A DNA stretch of 20,000 nucleotides from an uncultured virus (IMG/VR IMGVR_UViG_3300037400_003073) (lineage: Duplodnaviria; Heunggongvirae; Uroviricota; Caudoviricetes), in the IMG/VR virus record IMGVR_UViG_3300037400_003073. One strand, given 5' to 3'. The position numbers and the translations under genes were made by a program. Position 1 is the stretch's first letter. Each line of letters begins with the position of its first letter. Positions 6,405-19,093 of this stretch are shown in pieces. Under the pieces are notes generated by a model, which saw only the letters and a list, made by a program, of their open reading frames with translations, ran no database searches and was not told the DNA's origin.

Positions 6405-6534
6405 AAAAACGGCAATTTCTGAAAATTCTTGAAAAAAATTTTGTTTTACCTATTGACGGGCGGTTTAGAAAATTCTATATATAGAAACGTGAGCGGGAAC
6501 GAACCCGCCACGAAAAACAAGAGGTAACAAAATG
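6405..6534 (+). promoter_or_regulatory. Repeated early promoter-leader unit, copy A
   Basis: AAAAACGGCAATTTCTGAAAA box (6405-6425), TTGACG(6453)-17 bp-TATATA(6476), leader ending CAAGAGGTAACAAAATG. Confidence 0.85.
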
Positions 6535-7428: not shown

Positions 7429-7573
7429 GGCGAAGGCGGGCTTGTTACCTCATCACCTCAATGTTTCCCGCCTTCGCCTTCTGCTTTTCCCGCGCCCGAT
7501 CCATTGCGCGGGTTTCTCCGCCCCGGAGTGGCTTCTTTGTTACCTTTTGGGCCGCTCCGGGGTCCTTTTTTTT
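7429..7573 (+). ncRNA. Candidate antisense RNA: three GC-rich stem-loops with anti-RBS loops, ending in a terminator
   Basis: Stems 7429-7440/7467-7478 (12 bp perfect), 7489-7495/7506-7512 (7 bp), 7521-7532/7551-7562 (12 bp, one G-U), then T8. Loops contain TTGTTACCTC and TTTGTTACCTTTTG. Confidence 0.6.
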
Positions 7574-7621: not shown

Positions 7622-7738
7622 AAAAACGGCAATTTCTGAAAAATATTTTTCAAAACTATTGACCGTGAACAAATAAATTTCTATATATAGAAATGTGAGA
7701 GCGATAAAGCCCCACAAAAAACAAGAGGTAACAAAATG
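7622..7738 (+). promoter_or_regulatory. Repeated early promoter-leader unit, copy B
   Basis: Same 21-bp box (7622-7642), TTGACC(7659)-17 bp-TATATA(7682), CAAGAGGTAACAAAATG. Confidence 0.85.
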
Positions 7739-8273: not shown

Positions 8274-8501
8274 ATGACACGCGAAGAATTTATCGAGTAC
8301 ACCAAAAGGGCCCTTGCGCCTACGCTGAAAAGGCGCAAGCTGAAAAACGGAAACCTCATGATTTTCTACATCAAGAATCAATACGTAGAAATCCCGCCGG
8401 AGGTTTGGAATTTCCAGCCGGAGGACACTTGCGAAGCTAAGCGTCAAGAACGCCTTGCAGGTGTTTTCTATGATCTTTTCACCGCAAAAAATAAGAGGTA
8501 A
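8274..8501 (+). CDS. Hypothetical protein
   Basis: 75 aa ORF tiling between neighbours. Confidence 0.65.
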   Translation: MTREEFIEYTKRALAPTLKRRKLKNGNLMIFYIKNQYVEIPPEVWNFQPEDTCEAKRQERLAGVFYDLFTAKNKR

Positions 8502-8505
8502 CAAA

Positions 8506-8802
8506 ATGAATACAAATGAACAAAAATTCGACTGCCTTTCAGTCACTCACGTCGAAGTTTCAGTTTTCAAGCAAGGGGCTTATCTTGGAAAGCTTCGCGG
8601 ATTTGCTACGATTGTCTTGAACGGCCAATTGCAGATTCGCGGCTTGATGATCATGGATTCTGAAAATGGCCTTTACGTCGGTTATCCGACCGATCCGTAT
8701 TGCCGCGAAGACTTCCAGCACATGGTTCTTCCGATGACGCGGGCACTTCGCGAACACATCGAAAATTGCGTTCTTGAAAAATACCAGCAGGCGATAGGCT
8801 GA
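8506..8802 (+). CDS. spoVG: SpoVG-family nucleic-acid-binding protein
   Basis: VTHVEV...KLRGFATIVLNGQLQIRGLMIMDSENGLYVGYP...PMTRALREHIENCVLEKY matches the SpoVG pattern; AAGAGGTAACAAAATG start. Confidence 0.85.
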   Translation: MNTNEQKFDCLSVTHVEVSVFKQGAYLGKLRGFATIVLNGQLQIRGLMIMDSENGLYVGYPTDPYCREDFQHMVLPMTRALREHIENCVLEKYQQAIG

Positions 8803-11475: not shown

Positions 11476-11524
11476 TCCTAAACGTATTAACCAAATTAAC
11501 CGAATAAAAAAAAGGAGGTCGCAC

Positions 11525-11575
11525 ATGGCTTGCGGTGGCAAGAAATCCGGCGGCAAGAAACCGCCGAAAAAGTAG
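11525..11575 (+). CDS. 16-aa basic micropeptide MACGGKKSGGKKPPKK
   Basis: AAGGAGGT RBS just upstream of the ATG; last ORF before the terminator. Confidence 0.65.
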   Translation: MACGGKKSGGKKPPKK

Positions 11576-11662: not shown

Positions 11663-12682
11663 TTATGCGAGGTTAACCGCGTCCGTCAAGTCTTCCTTGA
11701 GTACGTGAGAGTACACAGACAAAGTGATCATGGGCGTAGAGTGGCGTAAAAGCCGCTGGGTCGTGACGACGCTTGCGCCGCCCCTCAAGAGGTTGGACGC
11801 GAAAGAATGGCGGAAGCGGTGACAGTTTGCGCGGCCTTCGAACTTTATCCCGGCTGCTGCACATGCCTTCTTGATTTCCCGATTCGTCGCCGTATTCGTC
11901 ACCTTGTCTGTAAATATTGCCCCGGACCCCGGCACGGTTGCACCGTCCAAGAAGCGGCACATTTCCGCGCGTAATTTCGCCGATACGGGCACTTTGGCGA
12001 ACTTCCCGCCCTTACCCATTACCTTTATGAAATCGCCCTCGAAATCGCCCCAAACGGCCTTTTGCGCTTCGAAAAATCGGAACCCCGCGTAAGCCATGAT
12101 CGCAAAGCAGAAGCGAAACTCTTTGTCCTTTTCTGCATCAAGAATTTTTTCGACTTGCTCCGGGGGCCAAAAACTTTTTTCAGTCTTGCGTATCTTCGGG
12201 TACTTTATACGTGAAAAAGGATTTTCGGCCTTGAGATCCCACGTCTTGAAACACCATTTGAAGAAAAGGCGGCAGACCTTCAATTTTTGGGCGATGGTGT
12301 TCGGCTTCAATCCCTTGAATTTGCATATAAATTCATTCGCCAAGTCAAAAGACAAGTCCGTTATAGATTGCAATCCGTATTCGTCCGCAAAGCTAGCGAG
12401 CGGCGTCAATTGGCTATTGTAATTTCGAATTGTCAAGCCGTCGCCCTTCGTCATTTGCGTGTCATCGAGAAATGCAAAGAGGGCTTTTCGGAACGTCGGG
12501 GCCTTCGCCCAATCTTGCCCCATTAATTCGCCGTTTTTCTGCGTCAAGATGCGGTGGGCTTCGTTCCTGTTTTCCGTTTTGAGCGACTTGTAGCGCATGG
12601 ATTTCGTCTTCGGATCGTACCAGCGCAAGAACCAAGTATAAATTCCCTTCGACCTGTTTTTTTGCTCGATTTCGTATTTCAT
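11663..12682 (-). CDS. int: Tyrosine recombinase / phage integrase
   Basis: Catalytic set GFRFFE (R), GKGGK (K), HRFRHSFA (HxxR), LLRHS (H), SVYSH (Y); N-terminal arm-binding-like WFLRWYDPKTKSMRYKSLKT. Confidence 0.95.
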   Translation of the reverse strand: MKYEIEQKNRSKGIYTWFLRWYDPKTKSMRYKSLKTENRNEAHRILTQKNGELMGQDWAKAPTFRKALFAFLDDTQMTKGDGLTIRNYNSQLTPLASFADEYGLQSITDLSFDLANEFICKFKGLKPNTIAQKLKVCRLFFKWCFKTWDLKAENPFSRIKYPKIRKTEKSFWPPEQVEKILDAEKDKEFRFCFAIMAYAGFRFFEAQKAVWGDFEGDFIKVMGKGGKFAKVPVSAKLRAEMCRFLDGATVPGSGAIFTDKVTNTATNREIKKACAAAGIKFEGRANCHRFRHSFASNLLRGGASVVTTQRLLRHSTPMITLSVYSHVLKEDLTDAVNLA

Positions 12683-13309: not shown

Positions 13310-13437
13310 AAAAACGGCAATTTCTGAAAATTTTTGAAAAAAGTTAATCCGAACTATTGACCGACTAAAAAGAAAATTCTATATATAGAAACGTGAGAGC
13401 GACAAAGCCCCGCAAAAAAACAAGAGGTAACAAAATG
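13310..13437 (+). promoter_or_regulatory. Repeated early promoter-leader unit, copy C
   Basis: Same 21-bp box (13310-13330), TTGACC(13357)-17 bp-TATATA(13380), CAAGAGGTAACAAAATG. Confidence 0.85.
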
Positions 13438-14925: not shown

Positions 14926-15633
14926 ATGGCAAAAGAAAGAACCCCATTTGAAAAGACCGCAGCGGCTTTAAAAATCATGGGAAAGAAAATCGCTGCAAAG
15001 AAAACAGAACCGCGGCGTGAGCTGCAATGCGTTTGGATCGAAAATAAATCGGGCTATGCCGTGGCGACTGACGGGCACGTTTTGGCGGTCCTCAACCTTA
15101 ATTGGTGGGATCATCTTTCACGCGCTGAAATGCTCCCGGAATTGGCTTTCTATGCGGATATGCAGGAACTCAAGTACATCAACGGTTCGGCCTTGATTTC
15201 TGCCGACAAGAAAGATGAATTTGTAAAAAGTTTCGGTCACGGCATGAACGTAACGCCGGATTATGCTGAACTTGATATTGATACGAAAATCCCTTATCCC
15301 GATTGGAAAAGGCTTATTCCAAATGCTGAAAACTTGCAGCACGTCACGAAAACGGGGGCGACATTCTATCCCGGTCAAATCGGGGTCCTCGACCTTATCC
15401 CGCCCGCCTTCGACGATATGGTGACGGATTCAAGCACCATTGCAAACGGACTTTACGGCGAGCATGCAAACGGTTTTCATATTGCCATTTATCCGGGGCT
15501 TTTGCTGGCGGCGGTCCCATTAATTTATAAAGAAGATAAAGTTTCTATCGTTCCGTCAAAAGACGATGTTGAAGCATTCTTCAAGCCCGCCAAATCCGAA
15601 CAATTAGAAATGGAGTTTGATACAAATGAATAA
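14926..15633 (+). CDS. Protein with DNA polymerase III beta-clamp-like motifs
   Basis: AVATDGHVLA and YPDWKRLIP resemble the ATDGHRL and YPDYxRVIP motifs of the DnaN central domain; too short for a full DnaN. Confidence 0.6.
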   Translation: MAKERTPFEKTAAALKIMGKKIAAKKTEPRRELQCVWIENKSGYAVATDGHVLAVLNLNWWDHLSRAEMLPELAFYADMQELKYINGSALISADKKDEFVKSFGHGMNVTPDYAELDIDTKIPYPDWKRLIPNAENLQHVTKTGATFYPGQIGVLDLIPPAFDDMVTDSSTIANGLYGEHANGFHIAIYPGLLLAAVPLIYKEDKVSIVPSKDDVEAFFKPAKSEQLEMEFDTNE

Positions 15634-16204
15634 TACGTTGATGATTGACCTTGAAACCACGGGCAAGGCCCCCGGATGCTGCATCCTAACCATCGGTGCG
15701 GCTGGAATCGACAAGAACGGCCTAGAAGTCAATTTCTACGCCCGTATTCACCACGATAAAAGTAAGGACGAAGGCTTTGACGATGATCCCGAAACTCTCG
15801 CTTGGTGGCGAAAGCAGGACCCCGCGACACTCAAAGAAGCGTTCGCCGGGACGACCGAAGGACCGCAAGACGTTGTGAACGAATTTGTTGATTTTGTAAA
15901 CAAGAATTTCGACACGTCTGCAAAAGATTTCACCGTGTGGAGCAAGGGCAGCGATTTCGATTTCCCTATCTTGAAAGCCTACCTTGACGCTTACGATCTC
16001 GCGACACCGTGGCCGTTTTGGTTCCAACGCGATTACAGGACGCTTCAAGCCGTTTTTCCGTTCCTCAAGGCCGAAGAAAAGAACGGCGAAAAGCACAACG
16101 CCCTTGAGGACGCAAAAGCGCAAATGCGCGGCCTTGAGCACTTCATGAGCCTTGAAGCTGTCTTTAAGGAAAAGCCGAAGAATGTAAACAAAATCATGGT
16201 ATAG
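15626..16204 (+). CDS. DEDDh 3'-5' exonuclease (Rv2179c/DUF5051-like)
   Basis: MIDLETTG, WSKGSDFDFPIL, RDYRTL, HNALEDA. Confidence 0.9.
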   Translation: MNNTLMIDLETTGKAPGCCILTIGAAGIDKNGLEVNFYARIHHDKSKDEGFDDDPETLAWWRKQDPATLKEAFAGTTEGPQDVVNEFVDFVNKNFDTSAKDFTVWSKGSDFDFPILKAYLDAYDLATPWPFWFQRDYRTLQAVFPFLKAEEKNGEKHNALEDAKAQMRGLEHFMSLEAVFKEKPKNVNKIMV

Positions 16205-16294
16205 AAACCTTTTTCGTGACCTCACGAAAATGATGGCGGAAACGCCGCCGCCCGTCATGGGAGTTTGTTTGAATTTTCGCCCATGACGGTAAAA

Positions 16295-16368
16295 CGTGCA
16301 TAACATGGCCGGATCGCGTTTTTGTTTAGGTTATCGCGGTTCTGTCGGTTCGAATCCGACTTGCACGA
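16295..16368 (+). ncRNA. 74-nt tRNA-like element with T-arm and acceptor stem but no canonical D or anticodon arm
   Basis: GTCGG-TTCGAAT-CCGAC (16344-16360); CGTGCA/TGCACG acceptor-like stem; GGATCGCG/CGCGGTTC stem with 16-nt U-rich loop; no CCA. Confidence 0.6.
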
Positions 16369-16530
16369 TAAATGCTTCATGAACAAACGAATTGAAGCAT
16401 GCAAAACGTGTGAAACTTTCAACCTTAAAAACAAGGAAAAAAAATCATTGTTTCTATGTTGGAAAATTCTCTATTATTTTATTTATTTGTTGAGCACGTT
16501 TTGCAACAATTTAAAAGGAGTAGTAATAAA

Positions 16531-16677
16531 ATGAATTGGCGCGTTGAAGAACTTGTAAAGCAGGGTATGAGCGTACGCGGTGCGTATAAGAAGGCTAAAG
16601 CGGAAGGCGTGATTCTTCACAAAGACGAAGCTGCCGAAGAAAAAGGATACAATTATAGCAAGGGTCAATGGGTATGA
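16531..16677 (+). CDS. Hypothetical protein (48 aa)
   Basis: AAGGAG RBS before ATG 16531. Confidence 0.65.
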   Translation: MNWRVEELVKQGMSVRGAYKKAKAEGVILHKDEAAEEKGYNYSKGQWV

Positions 16678-16808
16678 AAACTGTATTATTTATTGGCGGT
16701 TTATTTTGTTTCGGGTTCTCAATTTATACAAACTTAAAAGAAGATCCACTGACAGGAATCGTGAGCGGCGTTGCTGCAATGGTCTTGATTGCCTTGAGCC
16801 TTTTGTAA
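16674..16808 (+). CDS. 44-aa membrane protein
   Basis: MKTVLFIGGLFCFGFSIYTNLKEDPLTGIVSGVAAMVLIALSLL; ATGA overlap. Confidence 0.6.
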   Translation: MKTVLFIGGLFCFGFSIYTNLKEDPLTGIVSGVAAMVLIALSLL

Positions 16809-16824
16809 ATTGGAACACAAATAA

Positions 16825-17039
16825 ATGACGCTCGAAGAACTAGAAAAAATTCAAGATGCAATATGTGATACGCACAAATGCGGTCCTAATTGCCCGAATC
16901 GCCGTCAAAAATTAATAATTGGGACGGTTGCGCTTTTTGCTCAACTGTTTACCGTTACCCCGGTTACGAAGATTGGCTGAAAAGGCATCCCATAATTTTA
17001 AAGAAGGCTTTGGACCGAATCAAGGAGAAAGAAAAATGA
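16825..17039 (+). pseudogene. Cys-rich ~71-aa gene broken by a 1-nt deletion (or sequencing error)
   Basis: Adding one A to A5 at 16907-16911 gives MTLEELEKIQDAICDTHKCGPNCPNRRQKINNWDGCAFC...RIKEKEK*, ending in an ATGA overlap with 17036. Confidence 0.6.
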
Positions 17040-17576: not shown

Positions 17577-17813
17577 ATGCACTTTATCAAACTTGGCAAA
17601 AAGTATATCAATCTTGACAACGTAACAACCATTGAGCCGTGCAAAGACGGTCTTGGATATGAAGCAAACTTTGTTGGATCGACCAAATATCTTAAAATAT
17701 GCGAAGCCGACATGGTGGATATTAACAACGTTATAAGACTTTCGAATCTTCACGAAATTATTCTTGGATCGTCCGAAATAAGCGAAGCTGACAACATTGA
17801 ATCAAGGAGGTGA
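17577..17813 (+). CDS. Hypothetical protein
   Basis: 78 aa ORF beginning FIKLGKKYINLDNVTTI. Confidence 0.7.
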   Translation: MHFIKLGKKYINLDNVTTIEPCKDGLGYEANFVGSTKYLKICEADMVDINNVIRLSNLHEIILGSSEISEADNIESRR

Positions 17814-18679: not shown

Positions 18680-19093
18680 ATGAACATAATTTTGTCTATC
18701 AAACCGAAGTGGGCCGAACTGATTTATTCCGGCAAGAAAACTATCGAATGGCGAAAGAGTTGGCCAAAGTATAATATGTTTGAGTTCCAAAGAGTCGAAA
18801 GGGTTTTCTTGTATGAAACGGCCCCGGTAAAAAAGATTACAGGCTTTTTTATATTAAACGATCCGCCCGTCTTTCTTGTTTCTAATCTTGATTCTCCGAA
18901 TAATCAATGCCTTCTTGAAATGGGGTGCGTCCAAAAAGAGGATTTGAAAAAGTACAAAGGAAATAATGATGTTTTGTTCGGCTGGATGATTGGTAAAGTA
19001 ACAAGATTTCCCGAACCTTGGGGCCTTGAAATGGTGAACTTGAAAAGACCGCCGCAAAGTTGGTGCTATGATTATAGCGATTTGCCGTTCTAG
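18680..19093 (+). CDS. ASCH-domain protein
   Basis: ILSIKPKWAELIYSGKKTIEWRK (GxKxxExR)...YETAPVKKITG...RPPQSWCY. Confidence 0.9.
   Translation: MNIILSIKPKWAELIYSGKKTIEWRKSWPKYNMFEFQRVERVFLYETAPVKKITGFFILNDPPVFLVSNLDSPNNQCLLEMGCVQKEDLKKYKGNNDVLFGWMIGKVTRFPEPWGLEMVNLKRPPQSWCYDYSDLPF

Follow-up and report, generated by a model that had tools for sequence, protein, structure and literature searches.

The window, by which we mean the whole stretch of DNA analysed here (20,000 nt), is part of a temperate rumen phage, with tail and lysis genes at the left and many small genes, as judged from Pfam and PHROG. A close relative, G002, is a 45-kb record in which the translations point to genes for terminase, portal, capsid, and a contractile-type tail. 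Fibrobacter is the probable host: among named relatives whose host would suit, the closest is a prophage of Fibrobacter sp. UBA4375 (49% identity), and parts of the window were matched in 94 of 151 genomes of the Fibrobacter family, the best at 71% over ~810 nt and many at the SpoVG gene only. Against this host stand one close relative in a Bacteroidales MAG and one marker protein named from a Clostridia MAG, two assignments that may be misbins. The phage-encoded SpoVG itself (PF04026) lies at 8506-8802 and has matches in many Fibrobacter genomes; a tiny Lys/Gly-rich ORF at 11524-11574 is also present in prophage L049. Five features frame the locus:

6425-6515, 7631-7721, and 13329-13419: 91-nt promoter-plus-leader repeat (TTGAC..TATATA), three copies with an identical terminal RBS
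11663-12682: tyrosine integrase (Pfam)
15626-16204, + strand: 3'-5' exonuclease gene (PF16473, E = 1.8e-38; PHROG 255), directly upstream of the array
16211-16400: hairpin array
16531-16677, + strand: 48-aa ORF, found after the array in the window, L003, and L004 (4 homolog clusters)

The exonuclease gene appears to be the last gene of an early block that starts at the promoter-like repeat 13329-13419 and would be co-transcribed; a fourth copy of the repeated early RBS lies at 8488. The 48-aa ORF has no Pfam or PHROG family, and neither IMG/VR nor the 151 family genomes yielded a locus for this marker protein; the 3 homolog clusters looked up comprise 33 member sequences. Upstream of this ORF, an AT-rich stretch at 16450-16490 resembles a phage promoter motif (AAATTCT ahead of a -10-like hexamer) and is possibly the promoter of the 48-aa gene. 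The array between the two genes consists of hairpins placed around a tRNA-like unit:

16211-16230, strand not assigned: H1, an 8-bp palindrome, TTTTCGTG-ACCT-CACGAAAA, the same in 3/3 copies
16235-16249, + strand: H2, a small GC hairpin (fold), the same in 3/3 copies
16252-16289, + strand: H3, a 10-bp GC stem with a variable U-rich loop (fold, z = -4.28), 5 nt before the predicted RNase P site
16295-16368, + strand: D-armless tRNA-like RNA, 74 nt (fold, 3-copy comparison, descriptor fit)
16295-16301/16361-16367: its acceptor stem, CGTGCA/TGCACG, 6 bp plus U-U at 7:66
16302-16310: its joiner, 9 nt, AACATGGCC, with GG at 16307-16308
16311-16342: its central hairpin, an 8-bp stem with a 16-nt U-rich loop (16319-16334), followed by 1 nt
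16344-16360: its T arm, GTCGG-TTCGAAT-CCGAC, consensus
16368: its discriminator, A73; CCA is not encoded
16372-16400, + strand: H5, an 8-bp hairpin with a 13-nt A-rich loop (z = -3.59), starting 3 nt past the discriminator

Folding recovered every part of the array that the original prediction had named, each in its place, and gave a z of -2.90 for the array as a whole. H3 was read there as a 10-bp stem, which stands, and a loop GTTTGTTTG, which is too short, the loop having 18 nt. H2 admits two pairings, one of 4 bp with GAAA as tetraloop and one of 5 bp that leaves 5 nt in the loop. The H1 family palindrome also occurs on its own in Porphyromonas phage ORFs and in Fibrobacter genomes, and 18 of the 19 matches to Fibrobacter genomes fall within query positions 2-40; H1 belongs to a widespread family of short palindromes and is not specific to this module. 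On the minus strand, the palindrome at 16209-16233 reads HFREVTK. Across the three copies (window, L003, and L004), variable columns number 0/20 in the H3 stem, 4/19 in the H3 loop, and 0/29 in H5, whose loop is 11/13 identical to a loop in the syntenic L001 array (14/5000 shuffles). The array holds no + strand terminator that we could find. Reading frames that would span the array, or join H5 to the 48-aa gene, were considered and rejected as not conserved, their stops differing among the window, L003, and L004.

The tRNA-like unit has the upper half of a tRNA and lacks the lower. An acceptor stem of 6-7 bp and a 5-bp T stem with a TTCRANY loop are present in 3/3 copies, and a D stem-loop and a 7-nt anticodon loop are absent, as seen in the folds, in the lack of any ARAGORN call, and in the lack of an RF00005 match. 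Without a D stem or an anticodon loop, the element is not a tRNA. When the 20-kb window was dinucleotide-shuffled 1000 times, a T arm with a closing acceptor arose twice. Folded alone, the unit has a z of -1.74, and the minimum free energy structure of the L004 copy partly opens the T stem. ARAGORN found 0 genes, as the original prediction had expected, and in permissive mode returned noise only; an Rfam scan, C4-type models included, gave 0 matches at E<=1 among 4227 families. The element is a real, conserved, and unannotated tRNA mimic that belongs to none of the known classes compared (C4, CI, and the tmRNA domain). That it mimics a tRNA had been proposed from the letters alone, and the proposal is now backed by its anatomy, by the conservation of its structured columns, and by a covarying second family of look-alikes, both described below; its processing is a prediction.

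Exonuclease searches retrieved seven close relatives in which the end of the gene is intact (L001, L003, L004, L006, L007, L008, and L010), along with L002, where the gene is cut short, and three distant relatives. The whole array, with the 48-aa gene behind it, is present in two of the seven, L003 and L004. L001 and L008 fill the slot with other hairpins, whose loops are U-rich and which have U runs behind them:

L001 5582-5810 and L008 1140-1209: the hairpin cassettes that take the place of the array behind the exonuclease gene

In L006, L007, and L010, the exonuclease is followed by other genes, with no hairpins in the slot. Because relatives hold either hairpins and U runs or nothing at this point, the slot looks like a transcript-end module. 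The functional tie to the exonuclease that had been suggested is not supported, since 5/7 close relatives carry the gene without the element. Two exonuclease genes are themselves irregular: that of L006 carries an in-frame stop, and L006 was omitted from protein alignment A1 for this internal stop, while at L002 5001-5261 the gene breaks off at codon 87, where it is fused to the region matching window position 19040.

Conservation of the element was measured by comparing the window with L003 and L004, three copies that are ~95% identical, in column classes defined after the data had been seen. Structured columns are variable at 2/141; the two are the partners of pair 7:66, unpaired in 2/3 copies and G-C in L003. 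By comparison, the variable fraction is 24/77 at four-fold synonymous sites of the exonuclease (p = 1.7e-10), 12/136 in downstream intergenic columns (p = 0.005), and 6/35 in loop columns (p = 0.0009). The low variation of structured columns suggests selection, and the low divergence could partly come from recent module exchange. The element stems show no covariation among the three copies. A fourth copy lies on a contig of run X7, which covers 16211-17011 with 36 differing letters and 7 gaps. No contig piece listed for runs X1, X5, and X6 spans the element; its absence from the pieces listed for the RNA-labelled runs counts neither for nor against a transcript, and contigs do not reveal RNA ends. 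Beyond these, exact element patterns found nothing in IMG/VR; looser ones gave 44 loci, in all of which but L078 and L085 ARAGORN called a tRNA (42 loci), and another looser pattern matched at least 118 stretches. A descriptor run over 226 records yielded, among the matches listed, ARAGORN-negative and clean D-armless fits in the window, L003, and L004, and poor fits in L101 and L202. Model R1 had two weak matches in 101 genomes of the genus, one coding and one an RNA of prophage L049. Both ends of the element resemble this L049 RNA, a remodelled class II (Leu-like) tRNA that scores 24 bits with R1, which suggests a tRNA ancestry; because of this resemblance, the 8-bp hairpin may be an enlarged variable arm that remained once the D and anticodon arms were lost.

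The same resemblance would suit a decayed or rearranged tRNA gene carried as a neutral passenger on a recently swapped module, as would the lack of covariation and the broken 7:66 pair. We consider such decay quite improbable: a clean 8-bp helix has replaced the lost arms, the total length has stayed tRNA-like (73-74 nt), the stems are far more conserved than neighbouring sites, and the reduced shape recurs with covariation in the look-alike family found beside tail genes. Decay would also lead one to expect a canonical tRNA in relatives, and no intact cloverleaf was found in the slot of any of them. tRNA 3' ends are common att sites, and the window encodes a tyrosine integrase, so that the element could in principle be an attP core copied from the 3' end of a host tRNA. 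This we hold to be extremely improbable. The element lies 3.6 kb from the integrase, its 5' acceptor strand is present and paired, and it is missing from the same five relatives. The 19 matches to 101 Fibrobacter genomes all leave the T arm and acceptor uncovered, and the T-arm pattern occurs in 1/101 genomes, within a prophage-like stretch; a host tRNA 3' end serving as att core is excluded to the extent that the host is among the 101 genomes searched.

A second set of such RNAs emerged from a T-arm scan of Fibrobacter prophage stretches, which found ARAGORN-negative look-alikes in L276 (1447-1522), L277, L275, L288, and L291. They share a layout of 6-bp acceptor, GG-bearing joiner, long hairpin, and T arm; L270 is similar but is called Ser by ARAGORN. 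A model built from six look-alikes retrieved seven more (L331-L337) among the 101 genomes, for a total of 13. All 13 follow a tail-tube-like gene and 12/13 closely precede a second tail ORF, L291 being followed by another gene; these tail genes were assigned by PHROG in L276 and by translation likeness elsewhere. In the six aligned look-alikes, 60/60 acceptor and T cells are paired and 5/10 pairs show double changes, a result reached by 0/500 shuffles, which the relatedness of the sequences can inflate. An upstream hairpin ends 2-5 nt before the acceptor in 10/13 look-alikes, as H3 does in the window. When folded freely, 7/13 take the topology of the window element and 6/13 form a short helix within the joiner. 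The T loop is unusual in several of the 13 (ATCGA..). Rfam returned nothing relevant for the look-alikes searched (7/13 loci at E<=2 or E<=1, plus L277 and L275). They have no detectable homology to the window element, to which model R3 gives 14.8 bits, a score like those of ordinary tRNAs; for this reason, the family supports the architecture and not the job of the window element.

Many other tRNA scaffolds in Fibrobacter prophages also escape ARAGORN, with the top half intact and the lower arms remodelled (L011, L049, L078, L246-L248, L253, and L323). In these and in L242, the D arm is kept and the anticodon arm is replaced by a long insert or by a second T-arm-like hairpin (for instance, L011 11702-11833); two scaffolds of L049 (1757-1643 and 1632-1508, minus strand) share the loop AATGTAAG. 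Elsewhere, L314 (G012) and G005:C52 133743-134167 carry T-arm/acceptor units in tandem, spaced by ~200 nt and each with a terminator-like hairpin behind it; they may be what is left of att sites or a further tRNA-like array.

The abundance of such scaffolds is what one might expect if these RNAs were decoys for host defences that attack tRNA. The original prediction had named anticodon nucleases as the enemy, which is unlikely for this unit, as a 7-nt anticodon loop is missing and the loop that it does have tolerates indels. Likelier opponents would be enzymes that work on the acceptor end, and toxins of this kind include a nucleotidyltransferase, a pyrophosphokinase, and an acetyltransferase. 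In favor of a decoy, the long hairpin of most tail-gene look-alikes has retained CTTGA, reminiscent of a Ser anticodon loop, and irregular tRNAs near toxin-antitoxin systems are described in PMC5389517. The window element itself has no anticodon-type loop, however, and its loop length varies; Pfam and PHROG scans of window proteins showed no recognisable defence or toxin gene, and a decoy leaves the abutting hairpins unexplained. Overall, we regard it as improbable.

The loops of the array were also searched for partners. The complementarity of the H3 and H5 loops noted in the original prediction is a real 9-bp match (2 G-U); its pairing energy is -8.1 kcal/mol in the window, at p about 0.01-0.02, and the L004 value is -7.8. 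As a kissing pair it is weak and not conserved, since in L003, where the H3 loop has changed and the H5 loop has not, the pairing is broken and reaches only -4.5 (p about 0.2-0.3). When loops were tested for pairing with RBSs, that of the tRNA-like unit had 0, 0, and 1 of its top 5 sites on RBSs for the window, L003, and L004, respectively (p = 1.0, 1.0, and 0.18), the L003 and L004 loops being scored against window genes, as their contigs are short. The H3 and H5 loops also fail this test, whose counts are approximate because the gene caller missed ORFs shorter than 40 codons and the start at 8506. Individual sites do exist. The tRNA-like loop can form a 14-nt pairing with AACCTAAACGGAGG at 2082, the Shine-Dalgarno of a 16-codon ORF (-13.1, compared with -13.2 at a coding-region site), and it pairs with 16184-16196 in the window (-9.9, p = 0.007), a match not kept in L003 or L004 (p = 0.18 and 0.38).

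Elsewhere in the window, a different RNA has loops that do find RBSs:

7429-7563, + strand: three-hairpin RNA (covariation, target test), with copies at L012 1302-1441, L010 818-966, and L013 931-1094

Across these four phages, double changes affect 6/29 pairs, with 0/500 shuffles reaching the covariation score and 26/500 the pair count. The loops are antisense to the repeated early site AACAAGAGGTAACAAAATG (6514, 7718, 8488, and 13417), and of the five best sites for the loops at 7441-7466 and 7533-7550, 4 and 3 fall on called RBSs (reached by 0 and 1 of 100 shuffles, respectively). For the first loop in relatives, the count is 3/5 in G001 and L010 and 1/5 in G002 (p = 0.27), and the third loop of L010 fails the RBS test. 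One loop of 7429-7563 contains ATCACCTC, matching the RBS at 17806. Along the same lines, a hairpin in the post-exonuclease slot of L001 is antisense to the early RBS, with 3/5 top sites (2/100 shuffles). The array at 7429-7563 has no Rfam match, and model R2 found no further copy of it in 151 genomes, its single match being a tRNA. The 7429-7563 RNA is likely an early-gene shut-off sRNA. A separate loop, TTTGATGCCTTT, is shared by hairpins that lie at different sites in unrelated phages (the upstream hairpin of L270 and L331-L336, and L010 921-966), hinting at a common target or binding protein.

Since this phage family makes anti-RBS hairpins (7441-7466, 7533-7550, and the L001 slot hairpin), the tRNA-like unit might likewise be a regulator akin to C4 and CI, excised by the RNase P and RNase Z cuts set out below, with the U-rich loop as its business end shutting genes through RBSs or flanks. 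Its topology is like that of C4, an RNA with stem-loops, RNase P maturation, and a variable target loop (PMC5320573), and targets on both sides are a trait of CI (PMC4825925). The pairings with the Shine-Dalgarno at 2082 and with 16184-16196 would fit such a role, but the former is no stronger than the coding-region site and the latter is lost in both relatives. The element's own loops fail the RBS test as scored against window genes, no covarying loop target was found in G001, G002, or L010, and no C4-type model of Rfam matched. Antisense regulation is compatible with the punctuation role that we set out next, and as the function of the element it strikes us as rather unlikely.

The reading that we prefer, with confidence a little short of even, is that the element is a punctuation cassette for RNase P and RNase Z, which would leave hairpin-protected mRNA ends and a free 74-nt RNA. 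RNase P recognises the stack of acceptor and T arm together with the elbow; in precursors without CCA, RNase Z cleaves 3' of the discriminator. The tRNA-like features of the element are confined to the parts that tRNA-processing enzymes read, namely the 7/5 stems, TTCGAAT, and a GG five nt into the joiner, at a position that matches the host tmRNA (CTCT-GG). The trailer, A73 followed by TAA, is as in host tRNA genes: the pattern of T arm, N10, and ATAA occurs in 127/151 family genomes, compared with 3 control matches. The host tmRNA also lacks an encoded CCA; a count of 0 CCA in 45 called tRNAs is biased by the choice of loci and was left out of the argument. Counting against an RNase P cut, C at +1 and A at -1, as in the element, form a non-preferred context for this enzyme.

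In general terms, the proposed reaction can be divided into three steps. (i) Folding: the acceptor stem and the T arm would form one stack, and the joiner's GG would dock with the T loop, taking the part that the D loop plays in tRNA and in the tRNA-like domain of tmRNA. (ii) Cleavage: a read-through transcript would be cut by host RNase P before 16295 and by RNase Z after 16368, with CCA possibly added thereafter. (iii) Release: the early mRNA would be left ending in H3, 5 nt upstream, which would cap its 3' end, the downstream RNA would start with H5, 3 nt downstream, which would cap its 5' end, and a stable 74-nt RNA would be set free. Transcription, cleavage, end protection, and a role for the released RNA are what we infer; the fold, the conservation, the flanking hairpins, and the recurrence are seen in the sequences compared here.

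A broader scheme, which we find possible yet doubtful, is that armless tRNA mimics have arisen repeatedly in Fibrobacter phages to serve as RNase P/RNase Z punctuation inside protein-coding operons, at the end of the early block and at the boundary between tail-tube and tail-chaperone genes. The cuts would set mRNA ends and gene ratios, and some released hairpin RNAs would silence the phage's own early genes through their shared RBS. If true, phages would be recruiting the host's tRNA-trimming enzymes for mRNA cuts at marks that tRNA finders and Rfam miss, a little-described route to operon ends and gene ratios. It would also account for a set of tRNA-shaped RNAs in rumen Fibrobacter phages and would provide a natural minimal substrate of RNase P and RNase Z, 74 nt long, usable as a transcript separator in synthetic biology.

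A partial literature search returned no description of the element, the tail-tube family, or the anti-RBS array; PMC5737381, which describes a search covering Fibrobacteres intergenic regions, has a supplement that may bear on novelty. Among known systems, C4 of phages P1 and P7 and CI of P4 are phage RNAs of ~75-80 nt that are cut from a longer transcript, have a closing stem, stem-loops, and a variable loop, and are RNase P substrates (PMC5320573 for C4, PMC4825925 for the targets of CI), such cutting being predicted here. Unlike them, the element has a true tRNA T arm and no Rfam match, no conserved flanking targets emerged from the copies compared, and it follows an exonuclease gene, whereas theirs precede an antirepressor operon. 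Its predicted 5' end is CGU, whereas the RNase P site of C4 is GGW (PMC5320573). The irregular tRNAs and allo-tRNAs of Mukai et al. (PMC5389517) are non-canonical tRNA-shaped RNAs of bacteria and phages, some of which have no use in translation. They keep the cloverleaf, with an 8/4 or 9/3 acceptor branch and, in the allo-tRNA form that we looked for, a long V arm, whereas the branch of the element is 7/5 and both the D and anticodon arms are missing.

In overall plan, the element resembles the tRNA-like domain of tmRNA. Compared with the host tmRNA, the element has the same acceptor stem, unpaired GG joiner in place of the D stem, single long helix, and T arm. The two differ in that pair 3:70 is U-A in the element and G-U in tmRNA, the joiner has 9 nt instead of 12, and the linker is 1 nt instead of GAC; the element, 74 nt in all, has no tag-encoding part or mRNA-like domain. 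In mitochondria, tRNA-type ends release RNAs from a long transcript, an arrangement known as tRNA punctuation, and mitochondrial tRNA-Ser lacks the D arm. Those cases belong to organelles, whereas here a lone armless unit, unable to decode, stands among the protein genes of a temperate phage; if our broader scheme is right, it would be the bacterial, mRNA-level counterpart of mitochondrial tRNA punctuation.
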